DNA of 64,000 nt from Amoebidium appalachense (GCA_963693365.1 CAVNZM010000024.1:4937-68936); one strand, 5' to 3'; numbered from the stretch's first letter, positions 5,161 to 64,000 are shown. Notes: generated by a model from the letters alone, not told the origin. Program-made: numbers and translations.

Positions 5161-5766
5161 ATCTTATAAAGAACTAAAACAAATAACTCTAATTATTCAA
5201 TTCCCTTTTCTATACCTTATTAATAAAATAATTACAAATCTTAATGTAGTTACTATTCCATATTCCACGATTAACTGTCCATATTCTCTTGTTAATCCTC
5301 CTCCTTCTTTATCCCTTTCTAATCACACAATTAGGCCTACTCCTATTATTGAAATTTTATAAACTCAATTACTTTTACTTCTACTTTGTCCATTCTTGCT
5401 AAACATTACAATTAAAACTACTATACCTACTAATGCTATAATTGTTACATTTTTATTACATAAGTTATATTACACGTCTCTTTCCTACTATTGAATAGTT
5501 TAATTCAACTCCTAAATTATTATAATTAGAGCAATTTCTTCCTTTCTTACATTTAAGATTCCTATAAAATCGGATTTCTAATTGGTTAAACCTCAAAATT
5601 TCAGATCGTCACCCTAAAATTTGACAATTTACCACTTTCTGGATTTAGGATTGGAATTATCATCTTATATCGTGACAGAAGCTTCAAGTAAGAGTAGAGA
5701 GGCGAGGGGGCTATGTGAAATAACTAGACCACCCCCAACTATGTAGAATCTACACCTCCCTACCCT

Positions 5767-6066
5767 ATGAGCGTAGTAAAGAAGAAGGGAGGAGGGGGCG
5801 AGCTCTTGATGGGCATGTTCAGGTTCTCTCTGTCGTGGTATAGGAGACACAAGGAGGACACACGGAAGAACTTTGTGGGGTACCCATTCCTGCTAGTGAA
5901 AATGGTGGAATTAGTGGGTGGTATGGACGCAGAGGTGGTGGCCAGGCTGGTGCCTGCCGTCAAAAGCAAGGTGACTAGAGTAAAGTGTGACAGGGTGTGG
6001 GTTCAGCTGGAGAGGGACCTTAAAAACTACCACATGCTTGTGGAATACAACATGTTCTGCCTGTAG
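5767..6066 (+). CDS. Minimal VLTF3-like late transcription factor (C-terminal domain only)
   Basis: RKNFVGYPFLLVKMVELVG...VKSKVTRVKCDRVWVQL resembles the VLTF3 C-terminal pattern RKNFxxYxYxLxKxxELxG...LKSxxKxxxxDxxW. Confidence 0.65.
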   Translation: MSVVKKKGGGGELLMGMFRFSLSWYRRHKEDTRKNFVGYPFLLVKMVELVGGMDAEVVARLVPAVKSKVTRVKCDRVWVQLERDLKNYHMLVEYNMFCL

Positions 6067-6184
6067 CCTGGTGCTACTTGTACCTAAAGACAAGACAAGC
6101 CTTGTGCACAATACATTAGGGGTAGCAGGCGGTGGTAGGGGGGTGTGCCAGCACGTACCCACACTACCGTCGACCCACTCAAGT

Positions 6185-6376
6185 TTATTTGAACACCACA
6201 GGTGCCGTGCGTATGGGACGGTTGGCGTTGATACCGGACAACGGTACGGTGTAGGCCAACGGACGTTGCCGAAAGTCACGTATGGTGGAGACGTCCATAA
6301 CGTTCAAGTTGTTGTTCTGCTCCGGAAAAATGAACGGCTTCTTGCGTATAGGGGGGCCGCCAATGTTGAGCTCCAT
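6185..6376 (-). CDS. Small hypothetical protein
   Basis: ATG in AACATG context, stop overlaps AATAAA, AAAATATTGTG motif ~40 nt upstream. Confidence 0.45.
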   Translation of the reverse strand: MELNIGGPPIRKKPFIFPEQNNNLNVMDVSTIRDFRQRPLAYTVPLSGINANRPIRTAPVVFK

Positions 6377-6419
6377 GTTGCTGCTGCTGCAGGGTGTTTA
6401 CACAACCACACACAATATT

Positions 6420-6674
6420 TTAGAAGGTTTGGAAGGAGCTCTTGTCGGCAGCCACGGGCCAGGGTGTGTACGTGGCCGGCTTCGGTCTCATGGTCCCCCC
6501 TGGACCCTCAATGACGGTGTTTCCTGGTCCGTAGAACGGGCGGGTGTGGGGTACGGGTCCGGGGGCAGGCCGGGTGCGGTAGGGGGAGGGGTACGGGGAG
6601 GGGGACAAGCGTGTGTGGCAACGCATACATGCGCATGTGCTCCGTGTTGGGTGCCATGGTGGTGGTGGTGCCAC
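6420..6674 (-). CDS. Small Pro-rich hypothetical protein
   Basis: Fills the gap in a tandem minus-strand gene array. Confidence 0.35.
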   Translation of the reverse strand: MAPPPPWHPTRSTCACMRCHTRLSPSPYPSPYRTRPAPGPVPHTRPFYGPGNTVIEGPGGTMRPKPATYTPWPVAADKSSFQTF

Positions 6675-6692
6675 TGTTGCCTGTGCCGTAGA

Positions 6693-8988
6693 TTATTTAC
6701 CCTTCTTCTTGCCCTTCTTCTTGCCCTTCTTCTTCTTGTCCTTGTTCCACTCCGAGTCAACCATGGGCACGGCGTTCGAGTTGCCGCCGGAGTGCCGGAG
6801 GGCGAACCGTGCCAGGTGCAGCCAGTAGTCAGGATTGGGGGCTTGGCTGCCTGTTGCCTGTGAAGGCAGGACTCGTGCGTGCGGGTGTCGTGTGTGGCTG
6901 GGCAGGTCGCCAGGCCCGTACTCGTCGTGCCGGGTGCTTGGCCTTGACCTTGGCCAGGGGGGAGGGACGGGGCCGGGCTTGGGGGGCCTTGTGGCCTTGG
7001 TCTTGGACGTGGTCTTGGTGTCGGCAAGGAGGCCGGTGACATTATTGACACCCTCGAGTATGGCTGTCATGTTGTAGCCCTTGCTCTTTGCATAGTCCTG
7101 CGCCAGCACCCAGCCGAGCATTTTCAGCTCACCCATAGTGTCCCTCTCCCCCAGTATGGCCTCGGCAAGGTTACCTCCACCGGCTATACCGGCAAAACCT
7201 TCCCCGCCGGGCACAAGCCTCCGGGCTGCGTTAGCAAAGACCGCCTTCACGTAGGGGTCAATGATAGGGTTGTCCCACCCCGTCCCGTCCCCCGCCACCC
7301 GGCTCAGGAACTCCTCCGGGCTTTCCCCCCTTAGCTTAGCGAACCGTTCCCACGCCCGCTCCCACAGGCCGGGTGTGCTCGGCGCCGTGACCCCATTCTT
7401 CTCCTTCACAGACAGGGCAGGGGACGTGGGGGGTCTCCACACGTCAGGGGTCCCTCCACCTACCGGAGAGACCGTCACAGGCTTCTTGGTCTTTGGGTAC
7501 GACATGTCGCCGTCGTGGCCGATGGTGGCGAGTGCAGTGGTGGTGGTGGGACCCTCAATGCCGAGTGGCCGGGGTAGGTCCTCCCCTCCGCGTGCATGGT
7601 ACTCAAGCATGGCCTGTTTCGAAGCCTTAGGCTCGTTCTTCTTGATTCCCCAGGCAAACAACTTGATGGTTTGGTACACGGGGTCGGTCAGCATCCATTT
7701 CCACAGGTCGGGGCTCTCTTCCTTCAAGCGCACCTCCCAGTCCCACATGGGTTTCTGGAACTCGAAATACTCGGTAAAATCTGGCAGCTTCCACACCGTG
7801 AGGCCTCTCTCCTCTTCGGGGGCCGGGGTGTGCCCTTCAGGGGGCTTGACGGGCACCAGGGGAAAGGCCTCGGCCCACATCTGGAGCGGATAGTTCCCCG
7901 AGCCCGACTGCTTGGACGGCTGCATGACGGCAGGGGGGTTGGGTCCACGGTAGGCGGGGGACTGGGGTAGGGGTCGGGGGCGTAGGGGTGGGAAGGCTAT
8001 GGTGGGGCCGTGGGCAGGTGCTACAGGGGCCTCCACCTGCTTGCCGGCGGTGGAGGGGGGCCGGGAGCCAGGACGGGCGCTGCTGGTGCGTGTCACGGGC
8101 AGGCCGGGCCCGGCGGCCCTGCTGGGGGCTGGCCGTGACCGGTGGGCCACGGACTGGGGCATGAAGCCCTTTGCCGTCACGGGCGGCTTGGCAGGCAGGT
8201 GGGGTGCCACCGGGGTCTTTGGCGGTCCCCCAGGGTGCCAGCCGGGGGATGGGTAAGGTATGGGTGGGCCGTCGGGCTTGGCCGGTAGGTGGGGGGCCAC
8301 CGGGGTCTTTGGCGGTCCCCCAGGGTGCCAGCCGGGGGGTGGGTAAGGTATGGGTGGGCCGTCGGGCTTGGCCGGTAGGTGGGGTGCAACTGGGGTCTTT
8401 GGCGGGCCCCCAGGGTGCCAGCCGGGGGGTGGGTAGGGTAGGGGGTGGCTTGGCCGGCAGGTGGGGTGCCGCAGGGGTCTTTGGCGGGCCCCCAGGGTGC
8501 CAATCGGGGGGTGGGTAGGGTATGGGTGGGGCTTGAGGTGGTGGGGGTGCCTGGGTAGGTGTGGGGAACGGTACGGGTACGGGTGCCACGTCGGGTAAGG
8601 GAGAAGGGGGAGGTCTGGGCCTGGTCCACACGTATGAGCTACCATACTTGTCCTTGAGGTGGGGGTAGTAGTCCATATAGTCTAGGTCCACCTTAACCAC
8701 CTCCGGCAGATGCCCGCCCCACAACGACCCACCGTTACGGTCGGGGTCCATGTACTTGAGCTTGAGAAAGGCCTCGGGGCCCTCCCTTACGAGCTTACGG
8801 TAATCATCCGGGTGCAACCGCTGCTGCAAAGACCCAAACAAACCGACAGGGAGTGCACGCCACGTTTCCCCATCGTGCGGGTGCTTGTAGCTGACACGGT
8901 AATAGCCCACACGTTGTAACCAACCCAAATCCTTGTCCAAGTCGTCAGTGTGCCCATCTTGCTGCACGTGTGTGGTCATGGTGGACAC
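6693..8988 (-). CDS. Large Pro-rich protein with basic tail, one frameshift near 8445
   Basis: ORFs 7837-8988 and 6693-8645 join through the same repeat IPYPPPGWHPGGPPKTPVAPHLPAKP; ends KKKKGKKKGKKKGK. Confidence 0.65.
8180..8530 (-). repeat. 90-bp (30-aa) coding tandem repeat, 4 copies
   Basis: ggcgg(t/g)cccccagggtgcca at 8221, 8311, 8401 and 8483; the last spacing is 82 nt, which breaks the frame. Confidence 0.9.
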
Positions 8989-9012
8989 GGTGTTGTTGTA
9001 AAGTGGTGTTTA

Positions 9013-9393
9013 TTATTTGGAGAACCCGGCATACTGTGCCATGGGTTGTCTGGTAAAGCTGTTCTGGGGGTCACCACTACGACCCACCCTCACGGGCGTA
9101 AAGTCAAGGTAGTAGGCCTGGTTGTTGAACGGGAGACCCCGGCTGCCCAGACCACTCCTGCCCGGCATGGAGGGTAGGTGGTTGTCGGGGGGTAGGTTGT
9201 TGAAAGTCGGCAGCTCACGGAACGGTACACCGTACACCCCGGCCTGGAAGGTACCGTCACTGTCCGTGTGTCGTGCACGGTAGGGGGCTGCATAGGCAGC
9301 CTCATACTCGGCCTGTGGAGCTACCTTGTAGCCGTACACGGCAGCCTGGGCGGGTGTAGGTGCCCACGGTATGGAGGTTGTGTCGGTAGCCAT
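9013..9393 (-). CDS. Hypothetical protein downstream of the major capsid gene, possibly virion-associated
   Basis: Clean ORF, AACATG start, stop followed by AATAAA. Confidence 0.6.
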   Translation of the reverse strand: MATDTTSIPWAPTPAQAAVYGYKVAPQAEYEAAYAAPYRARHTDSDGTFQAGVYGVPFRELPTFNNLPPDNHLPSMPGRSGLGSRGLPFNNQAYYLDFTPVRVGRSGDPQNSFTRQPMAQYAGFSK

Positions 9394-9447
9394 GTTTGTC
9401 GTGTGTCAGTGCTTGTTGTATGTAGCCAGACACAATTTAGCGTGACT

Positions 9448-11196
9448 CTAGGCCTCCACCGTCACCTCACGGGCACCAGACAGCACAAGCACGTTCTCAT
9501 GGTGAACAAACGTGTCAAGGGTCAGGTCGTCGTACTCGTTGGCTCTGGAGGTGCCGCTGGTGAACTTCTCCGTGTTGAGGTGCAGCAGAATGGGGGTGGC
9601 ATCGGAGCTGGTGTCGAGGCCAGAGTACAGGTCACGGTCCCTCTCCAGGTCAAGGGCAATCATGAACTGTTTATCCGGCCAGGCGGTGCTGTTGTACATG
9701 CAGTCGGCCGTGACGTCGCCCAAGAAGTACAGGGCCTTGGCCAACTCCGCCCATGCCTCGGCACAGTTGTTTGAGGACACTCGAATCTCGTCGAGGGGCT
9801 TCTGGTAGGGTCCTATCTTGATCTGGTAACTGGTGATGTTGCTACGCGTGGACCTGAACGTCTCGCTGTTGGCCTGGGCCCAGTCGTTGCCACTCCTCAC
9901 GAGGGACAACAGGGACTTGACGTTCCGCCCCCGGAACGAAATGTGCAGGTCGGCAGGACTACCCCCTTTGACGTAGCTCTGGAAATGGGTGAACGTGCTG
10001 TATGGAATATACACGTTCTTCTCCATCAGAGCCTTCTCAAAGCCGGCCGTGTACACGGCATTCCACTCGATGATTTCACAGTGGAAGACGGGGTTGATAA
10101 TTTCGTAGGACACGTCCTTCACCCATTCCCCGTTCTCGGTGGGCACGTACAGCACCTGGTTGGCCTCCCCGAGAGACAGTTCGATCTGTACCTCCCCCAT
10201 GTAGGACAAGGGCAGGTACCTGCCGGAACGCATGAGGCCGAGCTTGAGCTGATGAATGTAGGTGAACCCGTCGGTGGCATCGATCTGGGCCTGCATGTTG
10301 GCCTGGTGGGGAGGCCACTTGGCCACCCTCTTGGTGTAGTCGAGGTACTTGCCGTCCGTAATGCGGTCCTTGCCGGGCACATTGCCGGCCTCGGCGGGTG
10401 TGGGCACCAGGGTCTCGTCGGCAAGGGGGGCTACGTCCTTGAGCTTTTCAATACCAAACAGCTTCTTGAGCGGGTCGGGGTTGAAGAGGGCGTATTTACT
10501 ATCGACCGACGTATTCCACTTGTCAGCGTACTCCCAGTCGTCGTCCTGGGGCCCGTAGGTGCCGTGCATGCGGCCGGCAGGGCAGTTGCCGTAATCAGCC
10601 GACGACAGGAAGCGTTCAAGGTTGATCATGAGGTGGTTGTACCCAGAAATGTCCTCCACGGTAGTGCCGTTGATGGACACACGGGCACGGTCAAAGGGGG
10701 CAGCCGAGGAGCACAGGTGACCACCCATCATGGCCATACCCTCCAGGTTGCGGACCTTGAGAGGGAAAATGTCCTTACTGGCAACAGGCGTCGGATTGAG
10801 GGTGTCGGTTGCAAGCGTCGCGGGCTGGGGTACAGTGGTACCCTCATAGCTGACAGTGTCCGCATCGCTGACAATGGGGTGGTCGAGCTGGCCGGGGAGG
10901 GGGAACTTGCGCATTCTCTCCACCTTGACACCCACGTTCTCGGGGGCGTTGGGGACGTTGGCCTTGAACTGGAACGTCATGTAGCTGTTGAGACAGTCCA
11001 GGAAGCCCACGGCAGGCAGGGAGAACCGAATCACACGCTGCCCCTTGGAGCTGTACGTCGAGCCGGTCACCGGGTAGGTCTTGACGGTCGACCGGCGGTT
11101 AATGTGGCTGAGCTCGACGGGCGAGTAGGTGCCGGCGTCCGTCAGCTTGTGGTAGGCCAGGTTGAGGGGCACGGAGGCGTCGTAGGGGGCTGCCAT
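9448..11196 (-). CDS. PLV-type double jelly-roll major capsid protein
   Basis: VIRFSLPAVGFLDCLNSYMTFQF, PFDRARVSINGTTVEDISGYNHL, RYLPLSYMGEVQIELSL, FMIALDLE...SGLDT; adjacent to the packaging ATPase. Confidence 0.85.
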   Translation of the reverse strand: MAAPYDASVPLNLAYHKLTDAGTYSPVELSHINRRSTVKTYPVTGSTYSSKGQRVIRFSLPAVGFLDCLNSYMTFQFKANVPNAPENVGVKVERMRKFPLPGQLDHPIVSDADTVSYEGTTVPQPATLATDTLNPTPVASKDIFPLKVRNLEGMAMMGGHLCSSAAPFDRARVSINGTTVEDISGYNHLMINLERFLSSADYGNCPAGRMHGTYGPQDDDWEYADKWNTSVDSKYALFNPDPLKKLFGIEKLKDVAPLADETLVPTPAEAGNVPGKDRITDGKYLDYTKRVAKWPPHQANMQAQIDATDGFTYIHQLKLGLMRSGRYLPLSYMGEVQIELSLGEANQVLYVPTENGEWVKDVSYEIINPVFHCEIIEWNAVYTAGFEKALMEKNVYIPYSTFTHFQSYVKGGSPADLHISFRGRNVKSLLSLVRSGNDWAQANSETFRSTRSNITSYQIKIGPYQKPLDEIRVSSNNCAEAWAELAKALYFLGDVTADCMYNSTAWPDKQFMIALDLERDRDLYSGLDTSSDATPILLHLNTEKFTSGTSRANEYDDLTLDTFVHHENVLVLSGAREVTVEA

Positions 11197-11208
11197 GTTG
11201 CCGGTGTG

Positions 11209-11952
11209 TTACTCATGGTCGACATTTTTTTCACCCGTGCCGAGCACCACCTCCTCCTCAAAATTGCGGAACATTCGGCCCTCATTCAGCCGGATGAACA
11301 AAAAATCGTGCTTGTCCCGGTAGACCGTGTCCATGAGCTCGAAAAACTGGGGGGTTTCGAGGGCCGGCAAGAACTCGTCCCTCAACACCTTGAGCTCGGT
11401 GTTGTTGGTGTTCTTAAAATAGACCAAGGCATCGGCCTGGCTACGCAGCTCGAGGGGGATCTTGTTCAATTTCTGCCCCACCATCATCACCGACACACCG
11501 ATGTGTCGTCGGTTCTGTGCCATACGGACAAATTCACGGAGGTTGCCGGATTTTCTGAAAATGTGGGACATGTCGTCAAACACCAACAACATCCGGTAGT
11601 TGGGGTTAACCTTCTTGTGTTGGAGGGACAGTTTGAGGATCTCGGGGAGGAAGGTGACGTCCTGGTGCAGGCGGGCCTTGGGAATTTTCAGGGCCGTGCC
11701 GAGGGTGTGCATGCTCGGGCTGAAAATGTACACACGGTCAAACTGTTTATTGTAGAACTCGCCCTCCCGGGCAATGAGGTTGACGAGCAGGTTGGACTTG
11801 CCAGAACCAGGCTGGCCAATAAGCAAAAAGAAGAACACGTTGTCCATGAGGGGGTACGGTACGTTGAGTTTGGTGTCACACGTCATCGGAATGTGCTCCA
11901 CCGACAGTGGTGCCGGCAGGGGGTTCACGGCTATGGGTGGGGCAGGGTGCAT
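11209..11952 (-). CDS. A32/FtsK-HerA family DNA packaging ATPase
   Basis: Walker A GQPGSGKS, Walker B LLVFDDM, RH...S...Q motif and IPLELRSQAD. Confidence 0.92.
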   Translation of the reverse strand: MHPAPPIAVNPLPAPLSVEHIPMTCDTKLNVPYPLMDNVFFFLLIGQPGSGKSNLLVNLIAREGEFYNKQFDRVYIFSPSMHTLGTALKIPKARLHQDVTFLPEILKLSLQHKKVNPNYRMLLVFDDMSHIFRKSGNLREFVRMAQNRRHIGVSVMMVGQKLNKIPLELRSQADALVYFKNTNNTELKVLRDEFLPALETPQFFELMDTVYRDKHDFLFIRLNEGRMFRNFEEEVVLGTGEKNVDHE

Positions 11953-11980
11953 GGTGTCACTCAGTGTACGGTAGCTAAAA

Positions 11981-22448: not shown

Positions 22449-23045
22449 ATGGGGGTGTCATCGCGAGGCAGGAACGGGAACACGCGTGTCATCTACGTGC
22501 AGAACCAGCCAAACAAGGCGTCAGAGGTAGCCAAGTGGGTGGGGGCCCTGGCAGGCGGTGCAGCCTTGGGGGCAGGGGGGTACTATGCGTGGAAGCACAA
22601 GGGGGACATCGCGAGGGGAGTGGGTAACTTCATGTACAACAAGGCAGCGGACGCGGCCACCTACACTGCTGGGAAGGCAGGGGAGGCGGGGGGGACGGTG
22701 TTCAAGGGCCTCAAGGGGGTAGCACGTGCCACAGGCGACGCTGCCTTGCAGGGTACGCAGCACGTGGGACAGGGTGCCCAGGATGGTGCATTCAGTGCGT
22801 GGAAGACCCTGAGGAATGGTACAAGGGATGCAGGCAACTATCTGCTGCACAACACCCAGAATGCGTTGGGATATGGCCCATACAATGCCGCAGGCAGCAG
22901 CGGTAGTGTCTCCACAGGCACACGCACGGGCAAATACGAGTGGAGAGGGGGTGGAGGGGGCGGGATGCAGGTGCATGTGGGCGGTAAGCCCTATGTCTGG
23001 CCACCCACAAAGCCGCCCCACGTCTCGCAATCGGGCCGCATCTAA
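22449..23045 (+). CDS. Gly/Ala-rich protein with one hydrophobic segment
   Basis: WVGALAGGAALGAGGYYAW followed by amphipathic helices. Confidence 0.55.
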   Translation: MGVSSRGRNGNTRVIYVQNQPNKASEVAKWVGALAGGAALGAGGYYAWKHKGDIARGVGNFMYNKAADAATYTAGKAGEAGGTVFKGLKGVARATGDAALQGTQHVGQGAQDGAFSAWKTLRNGTRDAGNYLLHNTQNALGYGPYNAAGSSGSVSTGTRTGKYEWRGGGGGGMQVHVGGKPYVWPPTKPPHVSQSGRI

Positions 23046-23307
23046 TTGATATGTACATATATGGTAAGTCTGCAGGGAACCGTTGGCGGGCGGTGCGAGC
23101 AGCCAATCATATGCTCTGGCCTTTGTTGACTTGCATTCCATTGGCGGTAGTCCTGTTCTCCTATTGGACGCCTGGTGCATTAGGAGTCGCCGAATTTTAG
23201 AGCACTGTCGCATGTGTGCACTGGAGGGCACAAAAACCACCTGCGAACGTTCCTTTTATTCTAAGCCCCTCTAGCCTGATCTTTGCAAACAGCGAACTTT
23301 AGAAACC

Positions 23308-24390: not shown

Positions 24391-24647
24391 TGGTTAGGTT
24401 AGGAGTAATGATGATGATGGTGGGCAGTGCCCTATATTTTAACGTTTTTACGTTTTGTTACCTTCTCAGCTTAGTCTTAGACACTGTGGTTGCGAAGATA
24501 TTGGGCTGAGCCCTTTATTTCCACGTTTTTTCTTTTTACAAAGACAACCAGAGGCAAGAATAAACTTTTTATTTTTTACGAAAACATCCATGAAAACAAA
24601 CAGAGTGCAAGCTGAAGGCTACTACGGTGCATTGCACACGTGTGCCT

Positions 24648-24651
<4 letters not shown>

Positions 24652-24684
<33 letters not shown>

Positions 24685-24686
24685 GC

Positions 24687-24721
<35 letters not shown>

Positions 24722-26843: not shown

Positions 26844-26844
<1 letters not shown>

Positions 26845-45052: not shown

Positions 45053-45114
45053 GCCAGGACGTCCCATTACCAGTGGAACAGAAAATAAATGGCAGCCCAA
45101 GATGCTACACATGT

Positions 45115-50016: not shown

Positions 50017-51456
50017 ATGGACGACTACCTCGCCTTCGAAGACACCGCCGCCGGCCCGCACTTCGGCATCCCCTTCGTCCCCGACGCCTGCCTGGACCAC
50101 GAGTGGACCCCGGAGCTCGCCGTCGCCTACCTGCGCAGCAATGTCGCCCACGTCAAGGGCTGCTCGACGTACATCCTCAAGCAGTGGTGCCAGGACAGGC
50201 TGAAGTACGAGCACCGCATCCTGGGCAAGCGCGACATGCAGGACACGCTCGCCAAGTTCCACTTCCCGCTGCTGGCCGACCGCCCCAACCAGCAGCCCGC
50301 CGCCCCCTACCGCGGCCGCGAATACCTCAACAGCCCGTACATCCTCATGTACGACCGGCTGGTGTTCGATCCCGCCAGCCCGGACCCGCGCACGGGGGTG
50401 TACAAGAAGTCCGCCGGGCCCTACCGCACGTTCAACCTGTTCACCGGGTTCCGGTTCACGCTGAGCAACATGCCCGTAGCCCGGCGTGACGAGCTGGTGG
50501 CGCCCTTCGTCTCGCACGCGCGCGACGTGCTGTGCGGTGGCGACCCCGGGCTTTTTGACTACCTGATGCTGTGGATGGGCCACCTGTTCCAGCACCCGGC
50601 GTCCAAGCCCGGCAGCGCGCTGCTGCTCGTGTCCAAGCAGGGCGCGGGGAAGAACATCTTCTTCCAGGCGCTCATCGACGCCATGGGGGTCGAGCACTCG
50701 GTGTACGTCAACCGGCGCGACCGCATCCAGAACCACTTCAATGCGCACCTGCAGAACAAGCTGCTGGTGGTGGTCGACGAGGTGCTGTTCAGCAACTCGC
50801 GTGAGGTCAACAACATCATGAAGTCGCTCATCACCGAGTCGTCCAACATCCTCGAGAAGAAGGGTCAGGATGCCGTGGCTGTGCGTGCGTGCGAGCGCTA
50901 CGTGCTGCTGACCAACGAGAGCAACCCCGTGCTTGTCGAGCCCAGCGACCGCCGCTACGCGTGCATGGCCGTCAGCAACGCGCGTGTCGGCGACACGGCC
51001 TACTTTGCCACGTTTCACCAACACCACAGAGACCCCGAGGTGCTGCAGGCCATCCACGACCTGCTCGTGTCCGTGCCCGACGTGCCGCCCGTGCTGCCGC
51101 CGCCGCCCGTGACCGACCTCAAGAAGGAGCTGCGTGGCGCCACGCTTGACGACAACGTGGCGTTCCTTCGTGACATCGCCACGGGCGCAGACGGCTGCGA
51201 GGACCTGGCCGTCGCCGACGGCGCTTACGTGACCACTTTCGGGCTGGCCGAGCGCATGCGCACGTGGGCCGCACGCAACGGCAAGGACCCCGCGGCCGTC
51301 AGTGTCAAGAAGCTGGGCGGCGTGCTCGGCAAGGTGTTTGGGCAGCGCGTCAAGAAGCAGCGGAGCGCGGTGGCGGTGGGGGGCGTGGAGGGCACGGATC
51401 CGGAGGAGTACGTGCACGTGTACGTGTTCGAACACGCGAAGGTGGCGGGGGCGTGA
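50017..51456 (+). CDS. D5-like SF3 helicase (DUF5906-type), copy 1
   Basis: QGAGKNIF, FNAHLQNKLLVVVDE, LLTNE...DRRY, C-terminal winged helix. Confidence 0.88.
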   Translation: MDDYLAFEDTAAGPHFGIPFVPDACLDHEWTPELAVAYLRSNVAHVKGCSTYILKQWCQDRLKYEHRILGKRDMQDTLAKFHFPLLADRPNQQPAAPYRGREYLNSPYILMYDRLVFDPASPDPRTGVYKKSAGPYRTFNLFTGFRFTLSNMPVARRDELVAPFVSHARDVLCGGDPGLFDYLMLWMGHLFQHPASKPGSALLLVSKQGAGKNIFFQALIDAMGVEHSVYVNRRDRIQNHFNAHLQNKLLVVVDEVLFSNSREVNNIMKSLITESSNILEKKGQDAVAVRACERYVLLTNESNPVLVEPSDRRYACMAVSNARVGDTAYFATFHQHHRDPEVLQAIHDLLVSVPDVPPVLPPPPVTDLKKELRGATLDDNVAFLRDIATGADGCEDLAVADGAYVTTFGLAERMRTWAARNGKDPAAVSVKKLGGVLGKVFGQRVKKQRSAVAVGGVEGTDPEEYVHVYVFEHAKVAGA

Positions 51457-54303: not shown

Positions 54304-54528
54304 GGCGAACAGGGTCCACCCCCGGCACCTGTTCTCCAAGGATCCGGGAGACATGGTTGGGGATGCCATGGTGTTCTCTTGGGTTCCGGGAGACATGGGG
54401 GGGACCGGCGATGCTGTTCTCTAGCAAAATCACGGGCCAAACGTTCATGGGCACTGCCGTGTTCTCTCTGGTTTGTGGAGAAATCGGTGGACTGGGTAGG
54501 GGGCGGGGGCAGGAGAACAGGGTGGTGA
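54304..54528. repeat. Palindromic array copy B (inverted homologue of 32405-32630)
   Basis: TGTTCTC and GGAGACAT blocks; reverse complement aligns with copy A. Confidence 0.85.
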
Positions 54529-54621: not shown

Positions 54622-55419
54622 ATGTCTCAACTCAGCGAAGGGGCTGTTGTGCGCTGCCTCCACCTGGTGCGCACGTTTTTGGATAACGATAAGAGCAGCG
54701 CTTTGTTCATGCAGGGATACACAACGCACCACCTAGTGTTATACATCAAGCACCTGATGGAATTGGAAATAAACGAAAAGGTCCCAGTCGAACATATTGA
54801 GAGGCTGATCTCCTGCCCCGATGAAACGTCCGAACACACGCGCTCATCGAAGAAACTGAAAAACGTCGTTATAGCAGTTCGCGAGCTGTTCCCCACACCG
54901 TGGGTTTGGAAGGGGATTGATCCAGGCACGTTTACGGTGGAGCTCGCTAGGGAGGTCCATCGCAAGGTCATGGACGGGCTGCTCGATAGCGCTGGACGGT
55001 ATCGGGTGCGCTTTGCGCTTCCCGCAGGCTGCAGTCATCAGTACCTTGCACCGTTCAAGATCGAAGAGGCTCTCAAGCGTCTGTTCGAAAGGACACGCAC
55101 CGAACTCCAAGGCTGCAATGACGTTCTCGGTGCCATACAGGTCACCGCCCGTTTCCTCGGGGAGTTCCTCTACATCCACCCGTTCAGCAACGGCAACGGG
55201 CGCGTCGCCCGTCTGTTGGTCAGCGTGCTGCTCTCGCCCTATATTGCCGTTCCCCTCTCGTTGTACACAGACCGCAGCTCCCGCGAGCGCTACCACTCGC
55301 TGCTGCTGGCCGCGCAGAGCCAGCCGCCCCCCCACGACTACTCCGAGCTGGCGGCCTTCGTGCTGGACTGCGCAAGGGCAAACCTGGTCTCGGTGTGCAA
55401 CGCCCTGGATTTGGAATGA
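54622..55419 (+). CDS. Fic domain protein (putative AMPylase)
   Basis: HPFSNGNGRVARLL; G.YR flap motif. Confidence 0.9.
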   Translation: MSQLSEGAVVRCLHLVRTFLDNDKSSALFMQGYTTHHLVLYIKHLMELEINEKVPVEHIERLISCPDETSEHTRSSKKLKNVVIAVRELFPTPWVWKGIDPGTFTVELAREVHRKVMDGLLDSAGRYRVRFALPAGCSHQYLAPFKIEEALKRLFERTRTELQGCNDVLGAIQVTARFLGEFLYIHPFSNGNGRVARLLVSVLLSPYIAVPLSLYTDRSSRERYHSLLLAAQSQPPPHDYSELAAFVLDCARANLVSVCNALDLE

Positions 55420-55451
55420 AGCCGTCAACTCTTATCGCGCCCTACATCAAC

Positions 55452-56327
55452 ATGGACACACCCTCCCAAGCCAGGACACGTGTGCGGATCCTGCTGCCCG
55501 GGGGCGGCGTCAAGGGCTGCTTCCAAGTCGGGTTCATGCAGGGGATGCTCGCGTCGGGGCTGTACCAGGTCGACAGGGTGTACGGCACGTCCGTCGGCGC
55601 GCTGGTGGCGCCGTTCGTGGTTGCCGACCGCCTGGACGACCTGGCGCGCGAGCTGGGGAAGCTGAAGTGCGTGGAGGACATTGTGGAACCGTGGGGCGGC
55701 GCAATGGCGCTGCTTCCGAAAAGCTGGAGGACGGTTGTGGGGTCAATGCTGTACGGGGCGGCGTACAGCCGCTTCACCCTGCAGGAGCGTGCGGCGGCGC
55801 TTCTGGAGGGCATCGACGCGGACATCTACACGCGCTGCCACTGCGTCGCCTGGGACTTCCTCAACAAGAAGGAGCGGTGGTTCACAGGGCCCGAGTACCA
55901 GGTCGGCATGCGCGCGTCTTCGGCCCTTCCACTCGCGGTCCCCCCCGTCGAGTACGACGGCACCGTGTTTCTGGACGGCGGGGTCTCTGAGCTGGTGCCC
56001 CTCACCAAGGCACTCGAGGATGCCGCAGATGGGTTCGACGGCATCTACGTCACGGTGCTGTGCGACTCGCTGGCGCACTGCCCCGCAGAATCCGTGCCAA
56101 AAACGGGCATGGAGCTCTGCTATGCTCTGCAGCGTGACTCGGGCACCGAGCTAGCGGCCACCGAGTTCGCCAACCTCCGCACCCGCCTCGGAGACCGCCT
56201 CGTGGTGGTCGCTCCGGAGCGGAGGCTGTTTGCGTCGCCCATGGACGTCGACCCCGGGAAGGTCGCGCAGGCGCTTGCGGATGGCCGCACGGCGTTTGCT
56301 GCCTGGGCCGCCGCGGCACGTCAATAA
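55452..56327 (+). CDS. Patatin-like phospholipase
   Basis: GGGVKG, GTSVG, ASSALP and DGG motifs. Confidence 0.92.
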   Translation: MDTPSQARTRVRILLPGGGVKGCFQVGFMQGMLASGLYQVDRVYGTSVGALVAPFVVADRLDDLARELGKLKCVEDIVEPWGGAMALLPKSWRTVVGSMLYGAAYSRFTLQERAAALLEGIDADIYTRCHCVAWDFLNKKERWFTGPEYQVGMRASSALPLAVPPVEYDGTVFLDGGVSELVPLTKALEDAADGFDGIYVTVLCDSLAHCPAESVPKTGMELCYALQRDSGTELAATEFANLRTRLGDRLVVVAPERRLFASPMDVDPGKVAQALADGRTAFAAWAAAARQ

Positions 56328-56752: not shown

Positions 56753-57448
56753 TCACGACTGCTCCTGGCTGTTAATGACCTGGCTGTCGATCCTGTAGCA
56801 ATACAGAACATTGTTTGTTTCAGACACACGTGGGTGGTCTGGCCAGCGCGTCACCCTTTTTGCTTTGACGCCGATAGGTTTTCCCAGAATCTTCCTGAGG
56901 TTTACGCCAAAGATTTTCAAACTTGGAGTAGCTGTGTTAGAAGTATTCCGTTTATGCCACGAAAGGTATAGTTGGTACAGGTCAGATGAAGTCACGCGGC
57001 AGTCATCCTTTATGAAAGTCATGTCCTCACATCCATTGGTATGAGAGACCAAATCTTTTAAAAATTGCTGTTCGGCTTGTTTCTGCTGGGCATTCTTGGG
57101 TTTTGCAGTTTCTGCTTTGGCGAGTGGACCCCACATATGCTGCAGTGTATCATGCTCGGTGGTGACGGTAATGTTATGGCGCATCATGGTTTCCACAGCT
57201 ACCTTGTATGTGTTGGCGGGGGCGTAGCCATATAGATGGACTCGTGCACGGTGGGTGGGGTAGTAATCTGTGTATGCAAGCACCTGCCCCATTGCCGATT
57301 TCCAACGTTGAACCTTCTTTACTTCAATGACTTCTGTGTCCGTCAGCAGGTCGATCCTACCGGCGGGAGTATGCACCTCGCTCTTCCCACCCTCCAGTCG
57401 CATAAGTCGGTCCCTCACCAAACCTTCGTCACACAGCGTGCTAGCCAT
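56753..57448 (-). CDS. PD-(D/E)XK nuclease fused to a D5-helicase-type C-terminal winged helix
   Basis: EVHTPAGRIDLLT...IEVK...WK.A.GQVLAY..YYP; FLKDL...GCED...LYQLY..W...KILG. Confidence 0.7.
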   Translation of the reverse strand: MASTLCDEGLVRDRLMRLEGGKSEVHTPAGRIDLLTDTEVIEVKKVQRWKSAMGQVLAYTDYYPTHRARVHLYGYAPANTYKVAVETMMRHNITVTTEHDTLQHMWGPLAKAETAKPKNAQQKQAEQQFLKDLVSHTNGCEDMTFIKDDCRVTSSDLYQLYLSWHKRNTSNTATPSLKIFGVNLRKILGKPIGVKAKRVTRWPDHPRVSETNNVLYCYRIDSQVINSQEQS

Positions 57449-57578
57449 TGTAGTTGGCGCTAGAAAAAATATACAAGCCACGACACCCGATGCTGTGCAT
57501 ACCAGTGAGGGCTTGAGGGGCTGTGGGTGGCTCCCGTGGCACACGTGCCTCGCGGGCCTCGCGTGCCTCGCATGCCCC

Positions 57579-58079
57579 TCAGGGCCCCCCAGGCGCCCCC
57601 GCAGTGTTGAACGTACGGCTGTGGGTAGACGTGTATCGCTGGTTACGGACACGGGTCTTGGGGTCGGGGTCGCTGGGGTCGAAAACAATACCACCGTCGT
57701 AGACGACCATTTGGCTGCTGTCCAGATGCCATGAGCCCTTGTATGTTTCCACCTTTTTGCCCGTCGGGTTGTATTTGAACTTGTACTTGGACAGCATGTC
57801 GGCCACCTTCTTCTTGGACTTGACCTCATGGACGAATCTCCCATCCTTGAAACGCTTGAAGAGGTACACACCGTCCGGGCGGGAATAAGCCACTAGTGTA
57901 CGACAGAACGTGTGGATCTGCTCCTCGGTCCACTCGTAATTCTCGACAATGTCTGCGTCCAACCAGTTGTTGCGCGTGCCTGTTGTCCGCTCAAACTCTT
58001 CGTATGTCGCCAGTTTGCGCTGCTCGTTCTCGGACATGTCCGCGGCGATCTGCATGTATAGATCGTCCATGTTGTCCAT
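57579..58079 (-). pseudogene. Truncated N-terminal fragment of a third D5-like helicase
   Basis: WT.E...VAY...FDPSDPDPKT...RTFN matches both full copies and stops at the GC repeat. Confidence 0.7.
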
Positions 58080-58306
58080 TGTAGAAAGAATGGGGAGAAA
58101 ATGAACCCGGGTCTGCTTAAGTACCCCCCCCCCCCTATAGCTAGCATCTGTTGGTTCCTGAGGGGCTGTGAGGGGCATGCGTGGCTCGCCTGCCTCGTGC
58201 TGCCCGTGAGACCACTGTGCCTCCTCTTCCTCCCCGGCCCCATGCCCTGTGTGCCACCCCCAGCCACCCCCAGCCCCCCATGCCCCCGCGCAGCGTTGGG
58301 GAATGG

Positions 58307-59758
58307 CTAGGCCTGTTTGATCTTCTCGTAGTCGAACAAAAAAGCGTACGACGTTCCGGTTGGGGACAACGCGGGCATCCCAGGGGCAACAATCAGGTGG
58401 TTGTTTCGCACTCCCTTGTTGGGTCCAAGTATCTTGCTGAGCATGGAGCCCATGCTCTTCACACTGGCGTACGGGATGCTCTTGGTCTTGCCGTTGAGTG
58501 AAAGCCACTCCTTGTACAGATGCAGCATTGTGGTGGCTGTAACACGGGCCCCATTGGGAAGTTGCTCGACAGACATGCCCTCGGCGCCTGTAGCCATATC
58601 TTTGAGAAACAGGAGTTCATCTGGCTGTGTCATTTCACGCAGTTCGCACCAGAGTTCAGTCTTGGGTGGAAGCGGAAGAACACGGGGAACATTTGGCATC
58701 TTCATGAAGTAGTCACAGACAGCCTGTAGGTTTGCAGGGTCTTCGTAAAACCGTGTAAAGTTCTGGTAGTAGGCTCTTGGATAGACCACTGGGGTCCCCT
58801 GCAAGCACACCCAACGACGGTCCGATTCCTCCACCCGAACGGGCCATTTCTCGTTTGAAAGCCAGACATAGCGTTCGAAACTCTTCACACACACAGCGTC
58901 CTGCCCCTTTCGCTCGATCATGTTCACCTGCTGGGTGATGCGAGCCTTCATCAGGTTCGCAATTTCCCTGTTACTGCCAAGACCCATTTCGTCGCACACA
59001 ACCAGTAGCTTGTTCTCCAGATGCGCGTTGAACTTCCCCTCCAAATGCTCTCTGTGTGTGATATAACCACAATAACAACTGCCAATGATGTTGGCGATGA
59101 TCTCCCACCAGATGTTTTTCCCTATTCCCTGTATCGATCTCATGAGAATCGCTGTGCCAGACTTGACTTCAGGATACTGGAAGATGTGTGCGACCCATTG
59201 CATCAGATAATGAAAGCTCTCCCGGTCATTGTTGCAAAGCACCTCAAAGGCGTGGCGTTCGAACAGGGAGACAGAACCTGACTGCCAAGAAACGTTCTCG
59301 GGTTGGTGGGGTAGCGCCAATCCCTTGAACATGTTGTATGCCCGGCAACGTTGGACAAGGTATGCTGGCTTCGTGTTTCCAGTGCGTGGGTCTGGGGATG
59401 ACGGGTCAAAAACAAAACAGGTGTAGTATGGAAAGCAAGGTGTTTTCAACACGTTTGCACCGTTGTACGTATCCTGTTTGCCGTTTGCATGCGGAACAAG
59501 CTGAAATAGAAAGGCTCCCAAAAACTCTTGGAGTGCAGCCTTTGTCTTGCGATGGTGTTTGTACAGGTTCGTGTCCTGGTCATAAATCTTGACCAGATAG
59601 GCACCTTCCCTGCTGACATATGCGATGTTTGGGCTTAAAAAGGCAAACACCTCATCCAAAGTCCAATTTGCGCGTTGAACACATGTGTGGGGGTCAAACA
59701 ACATGCTATGGTCAACCGAAAGGTCTTCGAATGCATCATAAGATGGTGGAGCTCTCAT
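58307..59758 (-). CDS. D5-like SF3 helicase, copy 2
   Basis: QGIGKNIW, FNAHLENKLLVVCDE, LSNE...DRRW; TATA motif ~45 nt upstream. Confidence 0.88.
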   Translation of the reverse strand: MRAPPSYDAFEDLSVDHSMLFDPHTCVQRANWTLDEVFAFLSPNIAYVSREGAYLVKIYDQDTNLYKHHRKTKAALQEFLGAFLFQLVPHANGKQDTYNGANVLKTPCFPYYTCFVFDPSSPDPRTGNTKPAYLVQRCRAYNMFKGLALPHQPENVSWQSGSVSLFERHAFEVLCNNDRESFHYLMQWVAHIFQYPEVKSGTAILMRSIQGIGKNIWWEIIANIIGSCYCGYITHREHLEGKFNAHLENKLLVVCDEMGLGSNREIANLMKARITQQVNMIERKGQDAVCVKSFERYVWLSNEKWPVRVEESDRRWVCLQGTPVVYPRAYYQNFTRFYEDPANLQAVCDYFMKMPNVPRVLPLPPKTELWCELREMTQPDELLFLKDMATGAEGMSVEQLPNGARVTATTMLHLYKEWLSLNGKTKSIPYASVKSMGSMLSKILGPNKGVRNNHLIVAPGMPALSPTGTSYAFLFDYEKIKQA

Positions 59759-59940
59759 GATGCTTACAGTAGACTGAAGAAAAAAAAGCATGCATGTTCC
59801 TTTTATACCCTGTTGAAGAGTTAAAGCTGTTGAAGCTGTTGAAGGGGGGTTGTTTAAAATAGAAGTGTGACGGGCTGTGTGTGTGTGGGGTGATCTCGCG
59901 GACCTCAACGGTTCAACGGCTTCAACAACAACCCATCATA

Positions 59941-60634: not shown

Positions 60635-61111
60635 TTACTCCTCGTGTCCAGCACGGCTGCGCTTCTCGGTGGGCGCCGAAGTGTCCTCGGGCGACCGCGC
60701 GCGCTTCTTCTCGGTGGGCGCCGAAGTGTCCTCGGGCGACCGCGCGCGCTTCTTCTCGGGGGGCTTCTTGTGGAGGCGCTCCTCCTCGGAGCTCAAGATG
60801 CGAATGGGGCGCTCCTCGGTGGGGGACTCCTCGGCGGAGGTCTCGGGGTCGCTGAGGTTCTTCAGGCTCCTCCATGTCATACGGTACAGGCTCACGCTGG
60901 TCTTGAGGCGCTTGTACTTCTTGTGCAGCAACTTGTACTTGAGCTGCATCTCCCGCTCGCTGGCGCGCGCACGGTAGCGGTCACGCTTTGCCTCCTCGTA
61001 CAGGTACTGCTGCCATTCGGGAGGCCACGTGGCAAATGACCCTGGGGGCCGTGGACTGGCAGGCTGCCCGGCTGGGTCAGGGCCGGCCTTTGCAGATGGT
61101 GTGCCGGACAT
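60635..61111 (-). CDS. Probable nuclear protein with duplicated KKRARSP motif
   Basis: 45-bp repeat encoding EKKRARSPEDTSAPT twice; TATA upstream; AATAAA at stop. Confidence 0.6.
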   Translation of the reverse strand: MSGTPSAKAGPDPAGQPASPRPPGSFATWPPEWQQYLYEEAKRDRYRARASEREMQLKYKLLHKKYKRLKTSVSLYRMTWRSLKNLSDPETSAEESPTEERPIRILSSEEERLHKKPPEKKRARSPEDTSAPTEKKRARSPEDTSAPTEKRSRAGHEE

Positions 61112-61777
61112 TGTTGGTGAAGAGAAACAGGAAGAGTGGAAAGTGTCAGCATAGCGCTGAGTCGCGGCATTTTATACCTGCCAGGCAGGGCAAGGCTGAC
61201 AGCTGTCGCGTTTTGATTGGATGGACATGATTTATCTGATGGAATCAAAATTTACTTACCATGAGATGTAACCACATGATCCAATCGGAATTTATATTTA
61301 CGATCCAATCGCGGCTGACCAATCAGCGCGTGAGGCGTAATCTAGCGAGATATCCAATCGAATGGCGCTACGGTCATGCCATGCCAGTGCTTTTGAGATG
61401 GCTCATCGGACTGTCGGGCCCAGGAATAAAAAGTGTGTAAACCCTCGTGTGAAGTCCTCCTGGTACGGCCCAGGAATAAAAATTACATACTCCCCCCCCT
61501 ACCACCTGTACACCAGCACACCGACCTCTTCGTTTTGACATGACGTTCACCCAAAAATTGTGGGCGACCTCTCCTAGTGAAACCATAATCCTCCTCTTAC
61601 GCCCTGCCGGGCACAGGTTGCTGGTCCACGCACTGGATGCGGGGCGATTCTCAAGACCACCCACGCGCTTAAATTTCATAACCGCGTCCATACAGGTCTG
61701 TCAGATATATTTAGCATCTAATCGCGGCCAACCAATGCCTTGCTAGGTTTCAATATTTTCTGTCACTAAGAACGAGA

Positions 61778-63061
61778 ATGGCATCTGCTAACATTGACAG
61801 TATGGTCGAAAGGCAGCCCCGACCCAGCCCTAGGACCAGAAAATGCGAGCACGGGAAACCGAGAGGGTACTGCAAAACCTGTGGAGGATCTGCTCTGTGT
61901 CCACATGAGAAGAAGAGGAGTTTTTGTAAAGCATGCAACGGGGCAACCTTTTGCCCCCACGGCAGGCGCAAATATATCTGCGTACCTTGCGGCGGGAAGC
62001 AAATGTGCCCGCACGGTCGATATAGGCCTCTGTGCAAGGGGTGTGGCGGATCGCAGCTGTGTCCGCATGGAGCACGCAAAATCTTCTGCCAGTCATGCGG
62101 TGGATCAGGATTGTGCCCGCATGGGAAACCGAAAGCCAGGTGCAGACGGTGTGGTGGGAGGAGCTTTTGTAAACATGGCAAATGTAAAGTCTACTGTGGG
62201 CTTTGTGGAGGGCCAGCGCTCTGCCCACATCGTAAACGGAGAGACCGATGTAAAGAATGCAACGGAAAGGCGATTTGCAAACATGGTAAGACCAAGTTTG
62301 ACTGTAGGTCGTGTGGGGGCACAAGGTACTGCAAACATGGAAAACAAAAAGCGCGGTGTGTGTTTTGTGGAGGCACAGCGCTCTGCCACCATGGGAAGCG
62401 GAAGATATTTTGCCGATTATGTGACCTGAGCTACTTCTGCGCCGCGTGCACACTGACACACGTGAAGAAGAGGGGAAATCTGTGCGCCACTTGTGACCCA
62501 CAATCCACATGTAGAGCCAAGTGGTCCGAGGCGCGTCCAGAAATCAAGGTTTTGCGTCATGTGTCAGGCCTCATAGGCCCCCCCACCAGCCACGACAAAG
62601 TAGTACCAAACGATTGTGGAGAGCGCACTCGTCCGGATCTGTACTACGACTTTGGGACTTTTGTGCTGGTTGTAGAGGTAGACGAGGACCAACACCGTGC
62701 TTATGACACCACGTGTGAGGTTGCGCGGATGTTCAACCAGGCATCTGCGCACGAAGTGCCGACCATGTTTATTCGGTTCAACCCACACGGATTCAAGGTC
62801 GACAGCAAAACACAGAGAACTCCAATGAAGCAGAGGCTCGAGGCACTCACGGTCGCCATCAGACATGTGCGAGACACAGACTACGTCGCGCTGTTCAAGG
62901 ACGGGCGCATCCGCATGGGGTACCTGTTCTATGATTGGCACGAGGTGACGCAAGACCTTGGCGTGCTGTACAGCAGGCTAGTTTCGTCGGAAGATATGGA
63001 GAGGCTATTGGCTCCGTTTAAAGCGAAAACCAATCCGATGGACGCAGAAACCAAACAATAA
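61778..63061 (+). CDS. Zn-ribbon repeat protein with C-terminal PD-(D/E)XK-like endonuclease
   Basis: 11 x 18-aa CxHG....CxxCGG repeats; RPD....VVEVDEDQH...CE..RM...FIRFNP. Confidence 0.85.
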   Translation: MASANIDSMVERQPRPSPRTRKCEHGKPRGYCKTCGGSALCPHEKKRSFCKACNGATFCPHGRRKYICVPCGGKQMCPHGRYRPLCKGCGGSQLCPHGARKIFCQSCGGSGLCPHGKPKARCRRCGGRSFCKHGKCKVYCGLCGGPALCPHRKRRDRCKECNGKAICKHGKTKFDCRSCGGTRYCKHGKQKARCVFCGGTALCHHGKRKIFCRLCDLSYFCAACTLTHVKKRGNLCATCDPQSTCRAKWSEARPEIKVLRHVSGLIGPPTSHDKVVPNDCGERTRPDLYYDFGTFVLVVEVDEDQHRAYDTTCEVARMFNQASAHEVPTMFIRFNPHGFKVDSKTQRTPMKQRLEALTVAIRHVRDTDYVALFKDGRIRMGYLFYDWHEVTQDLGVLYSRLVSSEDMERLLAPFKAKTNPMDAETKQ

Positions 63062-63611
63062 CTCATTTACGCTTCACTCGCACGCTCTGGAGGATCACCA
63101 GCCTCCGGTATTTTGGCATGAACTCGTTGGCAAACACGTACTTCCTTGCACGTCTGTGACCCCTCTTTTTGGACTGACCTCCTTGTTTTGGCATGACCTC
63201 TACCCCAAAATTTTGGGCGCTTGCCCTGCACAACCCCTGTGAAACCACTTTCTCCGCTTGCACCCAGCCGCGCACAGGTTGCTGGTCCACGCACCCTCCT
63301 CGAGCTCGAGGGACACCTTGCGCCACCCGGATTCTGCGCGCTTGATCTCGCACGCCACCACAATGTCTCCCGGTCGCACACCTGCGGTCCACATGCTTGT
63401 GCAACAGCGCACGCTCAGCACCTCACACACCGTGTCGGGCCCACGTACACACACGCCGAAACACGCAAGCGCGCACTCGTGGTCATGCAGCGCCTCGAGA
63501 ACTGGCACCTTGCGAATGAGTGTGCGCCGACGCAGGCGGGGACTCTGGAGGGTATAAAAGCGTGTGTCTGACACGGGGAGCTGCCAGTCTGAATCTGCAC
63601 CAGAACCGACC

Positions 63612-64000
63612 ATGGCTTTTGAGCAGGACCTGAAGCTATTTGTCAATCGGCTGTCGCTGCTTGTATCCAACATGACGTTCGACTCGAACGGCGCCGGGAG
63701 GGTGGCAAGCCGGCCGCTACAGCTCCACGCAAGACTCGGCAAGGGCGACACGATGCTGTCGGACACGATGCTGCCGCTGCAGTCGGTGGAAACGTCGAAC
63801 AGGACTGGACTCAACCACCTGGTGTTTTCGACGTGTCCACTGGAGGGGGCCGGGGATGCGGTGACCATCGACCTGGATTGGGGCAAGTCGTTTCGGCTGA
63901 CCTGGGAGCGCTGGGACACCACGCTGTCGCTGCTGCCACCGAGGGATCCGACGGAGGAGGAGGGCATGAGCGAGGGACGAGCTGTCCCCATGGAGGCAAA
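63612..64000 (+). CDS. Hypothetical protein, truncated by the window end
   Basis: GGTATAAAAG at 63551, ACCATGG start, frame open to the end (MAFEQDLKLFVNRL...). Confidence 0.55.
   Translation, partial: MAFEQDLKLFVNRLSLLVSNMTFDSNGAGRVASRPLQLHARLGKGDTMLSDTMLPLQSVETSNRTGLNHLVFSTCPLEGAGDAVTIDLDWGKSFRLTWERWDTTLSLLPPRDPTEEEGMSEGRAVPMEA

Follow-up and report, generated by a model that had tools for sequence, protein, structure and literature searches.

A Polinton-like endogenous virus and a likely giant-virus-derived element, probably nested, meet at an exact joint in Amoebidium appalachense

Introduction

Does a gene-dense block of viral DNA in the protist Amoebidium appalachense represent one large hybrid virus, or two viral elements that have come to lie side by side? 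The question is raised by a 64,000-nt stretch of the genome assembly (GCA_963693365.1 CAVNZM010000024.1:4937-68936), hereafter the window, with positions counted from its first nucleotide. A preliminary description, made from the sequence alone, noted genes of Polinton-like viruses (PLVs) together with genes of nucleocytoplasmic large DNA viruses (NCLDVs), and proposed a single undescribed virus of >58 kb bridging the two groups. Its fallback was a PLV inserted at, or fused to, an endogenous giant virus. We find two families of viral sequence, an exact joint between them, and a gene cut at that joint. In our assessment, the block probably consists of two independent multi-copy viral elements, here called A and B, that meet at 27,058/27,059, most likely through integration of A into B.

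A and B appear to be of the kinds published for Amoebidium as “adintoviruses” and giant endogenous viral elements (GEVEs), respectively. Statements on published work, here and below, refer to the accessible parts of the cited sources. The “adintoviruses” are ~30 kb long and carry VLTF3, Dam, capsids and PolB; 44 are present in the reference, and some are truncated (PMC11244446). The GEVEs number 90 + 42, and are enriched in PCNA, recombinases and integrases (PMC11244446). Retrotransposons nested in PLVs have also been described (PMC12220804).

Results

Two viral families in one GC-rich block

The GC content of the window steps from ~0.32 to ~0.58 near 5.7 kb. Up to that point the window is an AT-rich repeat zone; beyond it, to the window end, it is GC-rich and dense in open reading frames (ORFs). 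We divide the window as follows:

1–5800, no strand: AT-rich host repeats (minisatellites); GC 0.32, tandem arrays
5800–27058, no strand: element A, a Polinton-like/adintovirus-like endogenous virus, left-truncated, ~21.3 kb; left limit approximate; multi-copy relatives, right terminus with other flanks
27059–64000, no strand: element B, a gene-dense, likely giant-virus-derived insertion, apparently young, multi-copy; ORF cover 84%; right end beyond the window

A and B are similar in GC content (0.57–0.59). Logan contigs from five coded runs (X4, X6, X7, X12 and X20) were matched at 85% likeness to positions 5,001–25,000 and 23,501–43,500, and medians were taken over 23 bins of A (9003–24343, with six preceding bins and one following bin excluded) and 24 bins of B (27503–43500, with six preceding bins excluded). 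X20 was excluded, since its low-depth coverage reached only half of the A bins; depth in X12 was very uneven, and this run may be RNA. Median summed contig depth, a measure distinct from copy number, was 6,628 for A and 25,063 for B in X6 (B/A 3.78), 2,600 and 8,839 in X4 (3.40), and 472 and 241 in X7 (0.51). Relatives of A across the stretch are mostly 90–99% alike. Among the long X7 pieces listed, the eight from A differ from the window at 648 of 7,609 nt (8.5%) and the six from B at 41 of 9,943 nt (0.41%). Contigs at least 99% alike to the window account for 2,444 of 4,092 matched contigs in X6 and 3,735 of 5,597 in X4. Since the B/A ratio flips between runs and the divergences lie twentyfold apart, A and B are very unlikely to be one inherited unit. 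Contigs identical to the window inside A sit at low depth (249–328 in X6, 65–138 in X4); hence, both families have many copies. For B, “tens” is a rough estimate.

CpG composition changes close to the joint, independently of the contigs: within 21–64 kb a change-point falls at 26,643 (support interval 26,165–27,281). The observed/expected CpG ratio of B is near neutral (0.94). Because B shows no CpG loss and has near-identical relatives, we infer that it is a younger arrival than A. Within A there are two opposite patterns. In the capsid module (5.8–20.6 kb) the observed/expected ratio is 0.24 for CGC/GCG CpGs and 1.15 for other CpGs, and 151 of 875 CpGs lie in the CGC/GCG context, against an expected fraction of 0.50. 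At 20.6–24.4 kb the ratio is 0.44 for other CpGs and 0.85 for CGC/GCG. The two patterns meet within the integrase gene, at a change-point of ~20,635 (log-likelihood gain 157); a further one, for non-CGC CpGs, is at ~24.4 kb. CGC/GCG is the context that is hypermethylated in Amoebidium (PMC11244446). The opposite patterns may stem from different past methylation of the two parts, or from selection disfavouring the context that the host methylates by default.

An exact joint that cuts a gene

Contig matching places the family boundary at 27,058/27,059, where two features meet:

26534–27058, no strand: right terminal region of A; CCAAT-like motif array, (CA)n, short subterminal repeats, end TTGTAGT at 27052–27058
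27049–30627, minus strand: giant IS630/Tc1-mariner-type DDE transposase of B; ~1,190 amino acids (aa), helix-turn-helix (HTH) and D-D-38-E; 3ʹ end cut by A's terminus

On B's side, X7 record 25 (1,727 nt, depth 212; contig record orientation is inferred from X12 record 8) follows the window between 28,210 and 27,059, differing from it 3 times, and then continues past 27,059 for 574 nt unlike the window. An 18-nt loose end precedes 27,059 in X6. On A's side, three X12 contigs track the window to 27,048 or 27,058, with loose ends behind both positions, and then enter other flanks; the three share the final six bases TGTAGT or match through them. Since A's end has other flanks and B is uninterrupted in two runs, the left element stops at 27,058 and the right sequence is cut there. 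The transposase has 238 residues past its catalytic E, against 479 and 488 in the Logan proteins P0003 and P0004, and is thus ~240 aa short.

The block that the preliminary description took to be continuous is therefore divided by a family boundary. Its estimate of 26.8 kb for a junction was near the boundary. Its fallback reading is supported. Independent copies of the left module, an outcome that the description itself had said would reduce its hybrid to a nested insertion, were found.

The right terminal region appears to belong to A. A CCAAT-like 10-mer is found only at 23163, in a promoter of A, and at 26546–26698. The segment at 25.5–27.06 kb, at ~1.5–3x A's median depth in three runs, is read as A's long terminal repeat.

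The left end of A lies at one partial gene:

5767–6066, plus strand: VLTF3-like ORF, C-terminal part only; Pfam Pox_VLTF3 E 0.0028, below the curated cut-off

The preliminary description had started the virus at 5,691. The last ~0.8 kb before 5800, including the purine-rich stretch 5691–5720, is a very high-copy repeat that cuts A's left end: summed contig depth at 5,706 is 108,649 in X6 and 164,744 in X7, against ~6,600 and ~470 for A, a hundreds-fold difference in X7. Residues 17–85 of the VLTF3-like ORF align with profile positions 98–164 of 168, and in-frame stops lie upstream; the ORF was probably cut by the host repeat. Given the extreme depth at 5,706, and VLTF3 similarity that starts only at 5,815, position 5,691 belongs to the host repeat, which truncates A at this point. 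Nor does the window contain an inverted partner for a left terminal repeat of A at that position. The AT-rich flank as an eroded copy of A's VLTF3 end had no tblastn or tblastx support. A ~90-bp spaced near-duplication (5680–5810) closes the host repeat, and even X20, a distant run, contains ends related to it.

Several points weigh against integration of A into B. Among the 30 record pieces listed, of >11,000, no contig crosses the joint with as much as 31 nt to its left and to its right. The other flanks of A's end all come from one run, X12, at 85% likeness. No target-site duplication or left terminal repeat of A is seen within the window, and on its left side A is flanked by sequence other than B. 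Depth has a trough at 24.2–25.5 kb and is higher at 25.5–27.06 kb, which could mark a third element. Summed contig depth does not equal copy number, and the contig comparison covers B, at 27,059–64,000, as far as 43,500. Lastly, the 37 kb of B within the window contain no NCLDV major capsid protein (MCP), PolB, RNA polymerase, VLTF3 or A32.

Alternative explanations

Could the joint involve three elements? A would then stop near 24.4 kb, and 24.6–27.058 kb would be a small transposon in its own right, with an end that cut B, the joint arising from transposon-mediated deletion or ectopic recombination. Such an arrangement would fit the depth trough, where a window-identical contig has single-copy-like depth before depth rises above that of A, as well as the inverted (GT)n/(CA)n at 24652 and 26845 and the non-CGC CpG change-point. 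However, 24,621–27,058 has no terminal inverted repeat, and only the microsatellite aligns; the CCAAT-like 10-mer links the segment to A; and approximately doubled depth is expected from a long terminal repeat at both ends of A. We consider this explanation quite unlikely.

An assembly chimera of two real repeat families is very unlikely. Homopolymer indels in the window are typical of a long-read consensus, both sides of the joint are repeats, and none of the listed contigs spans it. Nonetheless, the break coincides, to the nucleotide, with the end of an element that is flanked by different sequence elsewhere, no repeat is common across it, and window-identical contigs are found at single-copy-like depth within A and at 24915–25387.

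The single integrating virus of >58 kb, natively uniting a PLV capsid/integrase module with NCLDV-type genes, is largely refuted, and we regard it as highly improbable. A and B are adjacent in the assembly and alike in GC; A has no replication gene and B has helicases, and an environmental contig (L008, below) combines this capsid type with a DUF5906 helicase; and a continuum from PLVs to NCLDV-like viruses has been published (10.64898/2026.06.19.733378). Against this, the B/A depth ratio shifts sevenfold across runs in addition to the gap in divergence, at precisely this joint each half is also found alone, a gene is cut there, and capsid and PCNA occur together in none of 26 fetched loci.

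Equally improbable is that B owes its high depth to a population of persistent or episomal virus in the cultures, one piece of which is integrated in the window: the near-identical X6 and X4 contigs and lack of CpG loss would fit, but the B/A ratio is similar in 2011 and 2024 runs, X7 depth is flat and low in long contigs, and >100 chromosomal GEVE insertions with no particles seen are reported for Amoebidium (PMC11244446).

Genes of element A

Pfam was run on 59 ORFs of the window and then on 130 further frames picked by codon score. Besides the VLTF3-like ORF, A carries:

9448–11196, minus strand: double jelly-roll MCP, PLV-type family; AlphaFold2 (AF2) model and Foldseek
11209–11952, minus strand: A32 packaging ATPase; Pfam Pox_A32 E 1.2e-9
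13520–14578, minus strand: candidate penton; resembles that family, no match in any search
14609–15676, plus strand: ORF with a 126-bp tandem repeat; putatively fibre-like
19843–21162, plus strand: rve-type DDE integrase; rve_3 E 0.014 (below cut-off), IS481-type DDE E 6e-11
21526–22071, plus strand: Dam-type adenine methyltransferase; Pfam Dam E 1.4e-15
25440–26357, minus strand: 305-aa gene in A's right terminal region; no family match

The MCP assignment, made in the preliminary description, is upheld by structure prediction. The AF2 model, for which the window protein was aligned with 104 of 150 listed matches, has a mean predicted local distance difference test score (pLDDT) of 78.2, and Foldseek matches it to double-jelly-roll capsids at E 1e-14 to 1e-18 with 7–15% identity; a single-sequence model has a pLDDT of 30. 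ESM look-alikes are mostly Preplasmiviricota (score 0.97), with a recognition value under the tool's reliable range. The MCP has no Pfam match, and a sequence search of PDB with the MCP profile gave 0 matches. A word-based search of 7,150 candidates yielded two relatives, a Logan protein (53%) and SARC_11267 of the ichthyosporean Sphaeroforma arctica (29%), and a profile search yielded 907 proteins at E<=0.001. None of 40 scanned MCP-family proteins has a capsid Pfam match. Viral scans with the MCP or its alignment found no related loci, nor did metagenome scans.

The A32 ATPase and the integrase, with its catalytic motifs, were likewise confirmed, together with PCNA and YqaJ in B. For VLTF3 and DUF5760 the matches exist, but both fall below curated cut-offs. 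Searches confirmed neither the penton label nor the P11-like label at 31521–32351 in B; both proteins are candidates that resemble those families. Pfam also added Dam methyltransferase, IS630/Tc1 transposase (DDE_3), Fic, patatin and trypsin-like matches to the genes named in the preliminary description.

No polymerase family match, and thus no protein-primed PolB, was found in any of 189 window frames (59 + 130). A is a left-truncated copy, and we therefore call it adintovirus-like and do not assign it as a member. The 59 ORFs and 130 frames gave no Pfam match to a maturation cysteine protease (group 1 Maverick, Gossevirus type), HUH endonuclease or VLTF2; the 130 frames gave none to a polymerase, NCLDV capsid or RNA polymerase. 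Rfam gave no match in the window. At 6693–8979 there is a proline-rich region of 90-bp repeats, over which family depth drops to single-copy-like values (~335 in X6, ~90 in X4); it may be a copy-specific variable gene in A.

Genes of element B

Upstream of its transposase on the minus strand, and across the remainder of the window, B carries:

30647–31432, minus strand: PCNA, divergent, single ORF; Pfam E 1.7e-19
31521–32351, plus strand: candidate P11-like protein; no supporting match
34053–35681 (minus strand), 35715–37316 (plus) and 37340–39724 (plus): three paralogous lectin-like ORFs; 27–34% mutual identity
42736–44152, plus strand: trypsin-like protease and YqaJ recombinase; Pfam E 2e-13 and 1.4e-21
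44651–45112, minus strand: DUF5760-like protein; E 0.0011, 19.6 bits against a cut-off of 27
50017–51456, plus strand: DUF5906 (D5-type) helicase 1; Pfam, DUF5906 pair E 3e-19 and 1e-19
54622–56327, plus strand: Fic-domain and patatin-like genes; Pfam E 2e-14 and 2e-18
56753–59791, minus strand: DUF5906 helicase 2 (58307–59791) and two neighbouring ORFs with partial helicase paralogy; Pfam, pairwise matches

B is likely giant-virus-derived, judging from its gene content. The 12 best relatives of its PCNA are all environmental (44–49% identity), and cellular PCNAs are far weaker matches. Viral scans with PCNA, the PCNA alignment or YqaJ found no related loci. The helicase alignment found 26 loci, the best a contig of a giant-virus metagenome-assembled genome (L001, 32%); none of the 26 has a PCNA or transposase match. 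One of them, L008:1025-7892 in a 12-kb IMG/VR contig, encodes a DUF5906 helicase, A32, a lipase and a capsid belonging broadly to the family of A's (profile E 3e-61), and appears to be a PLV using this helicase type. Since L008 pairs the helicase with A32 and capsid, the D5-type gene, although real, is not diagnostic of NCLDVs as the preliminary description had supposed. As B lacks an NCLDV hallmark in the window and extends past it, we call B giant-virus-like without assigning it.

Other features of B were noted. Two ORFs after helicase 2 each match part of it (24–27%), which looks like tandem duplication and decay, and short repeats are common to 54.2, 56.4, 57.5 and 58.2 kb. One of the three paralogous lectin-like ORFs has a weak lectin Pfam match. 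A ~225-bp repeat, 72% alike and inverted, lies at 32405–32629 and 54304–54527; contigs depart at 32398 into several neighbours, and X7 depth is sixfold higher in that bin. The repeat is probably a small non-autonomous element inside B. The ORF at 39928–41115 has a P-loop motif and no family match. At 61778–63061 is a Cys-rich repeat protein with a nuclease-like C-terminus and no Pfam match; its repeats may resemble the EsV-1-7 type.

An oversized transposase

The transposase reads as four stop-free pieces from 30,627 to 27,049, giving 1,193 residues with X at the breaks. The three breaks (27792, 28841 and 29650) are single-base and all in homopolymers. Other contigs lack them, accounting for all X7 depth at two sites and 31–100% of depth elsewhere; therefore, some breaks are probably consensus errors. 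Residues 627–1081 match P0003 (1,432 aa) at E 6e-91, and residues 118–313 match weakly. P0003, P0004 and P0005 (up to 1,432 aa) have a common giant HTH-DDE architecture with a weakly alike N-terminal extension (E 9e-5), and together with the window protein they may form a small family of oversized IS630/Tc1 transposases. No related loci were found for the transposase alignment in viral scans, and there is no detectable relatedness between the transposase and the rve integrase.

Does this transposase mobilize B? X7 contigs tile 27059–28210, 28842–30437 and 30471–32225 at depth 212–226, and depth in the transposase bin is similar to that of PCNA in X6, X4 and X7, as plain inheritance would also produce. 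The near-identical copies, the neutral CpG content, the strain-dependent amplification and an oversized transposase at its neighbours' depth make a virus-transposon a possible lead. We offer as a tentative idea, unlikely on present evidence, that B, at least 37 kb long, is a transposon derived from a Nucleocytoviricota-type genome and reached tens of near-identical copies in one strain via its own ~1,400-aa IS630/Tc1 transposase. B would then be a giant-virus counterpart of Teratorn, and A would have been caught in the act of entering the gene for that transposase. Transposon-aided propagation of giant viruses has been raised as a possibility (PMC10175614). Against the idea, the IS630-Tc1-mariner transposases of Punuivirus belong to small Fanzor elements (10.1101/2024.09.03.611062), and neither end of B falls within the window. 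Our literature search, with most subscription papers outside its coverage, found no report of a transposase-mobilised giant-virus element or of a PLV nested in a GEVE. The accessible main text of PMC11244446 does not mention DDE, Tc1 or mariner; its Fig. 2D and S4 and the bioRxiv supplements may name DDE domains in GEVEs.

Discussion

How might A have come to lie in B? Integration mediated by rve is the Polinton mode. We propose that A integrated by its own rve integrase into the 3ʹ part of B's transposase gene. Subsequently, A's left ~8 kb, with the polymerase and left terminal repeat, would have been lost along with B's left remainder, either by deletion or when the high-copy host repeat was inserted. 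With 21.3 kb of ~30 kb present in A, the ~8 kb gone would leave room enough for a protein-primed PolB and a left repeat. Both elements may be tolerated or silenced under CG methylation. B could have been in a chromosome when A entered, or could have been a free giant-virus genome, as for Sputnik 2 in Lentille virus (PMC6723459).

A resembles the “adintoviruses” of A. appalachense in its VLTF3, Dam and major capsid and its compact multi-copy insertion (PMC11244446), and its capsid relative is ichthyosporean; truncated copies are described among the “adintoviruses” too (PMC11244446). It differs in having no protein-primed PolB or left terminal repeat and in its length of ~21 kb rather than ~30 kb; moreover, an rve integrase is not named in the accessible text on the “adintoviruses”, and A ends inside another viral element (PMC11244446). 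Like the Amoebidium GEVEs, B is intron-poor and gene-dense, with PCNA, a recombinase, a D5-type helicase and an incomplete core set, and such GEVEs have many, strain-polymorphic insertions (PMC11244446). In contrast to them, B has no NCLDV MCP, VLTF3, A32 or JmjC in its 37 kb within the window. For the GEVEs, divergence and stochastic integration are stressed (PMC11244446), whereas B's copies are near-identical and include a DDE transposase.

More distant systems offer partial parallels. The provirophage Sputnik 2 in Lentille virus is also a small double-jelly-roll virus inside giant-virus DNA (PMC6723459); by comparison, A and B lie in a eukaryotic assembly, and A is Polinton-like with an rve integrase. 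The Punuivirus GEVE of Chlamydomonas shares IS630-Tc1-mariner transposases with B, but these occur in several copies per virus in Fanzor elements and do not explain integration (10.1101/2024.09.03.611062). B has one ~1,200–1,400-aa transposase at its neighbours' depth, and no Fanzor was detected in it. Teratorn, a piggyBac-herpesvirus fusion, is a large DNA virus with a cut-and-paste transposase and many copies in its host (PMC10175614), as B would be in the virus-transposon reading. The two differ in both virus and transposase class. Mriyaviruses and the NCLDV-like PLVs Zora and Zephyr are small, combine VLTF3 with rve and link PLVs to Nucleocytoviricota (10.64898/2026.06.19.733378). These are single 15–45 kb genomes, with PCNA unmentioned in the accessible text (10.64898/2026.06.19.733378), whereas the block in the window is two joined families.

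Since both parts resemble published kinds, the proposed missing link reduces to a nested insertion: a PLV beside giant-virus genes can arise in this way, and such contigs can mislead binning and claims of gene linkage. At this locus the position of a Polinton-like virus within giant-virus-like DNA is resolved to the single base, and the arrangement fits targeting of the provirophage type. The entry of giant-virus DNA has been treated as stochastic or unexplained (PMC11244446, 10.1101/2024.09.03.611062). If true, the virus-transposon lead would provide a mechanism for the entry and multiplication of giant-virus DNA in eukaryotic chromosomes, in a culturable protist.

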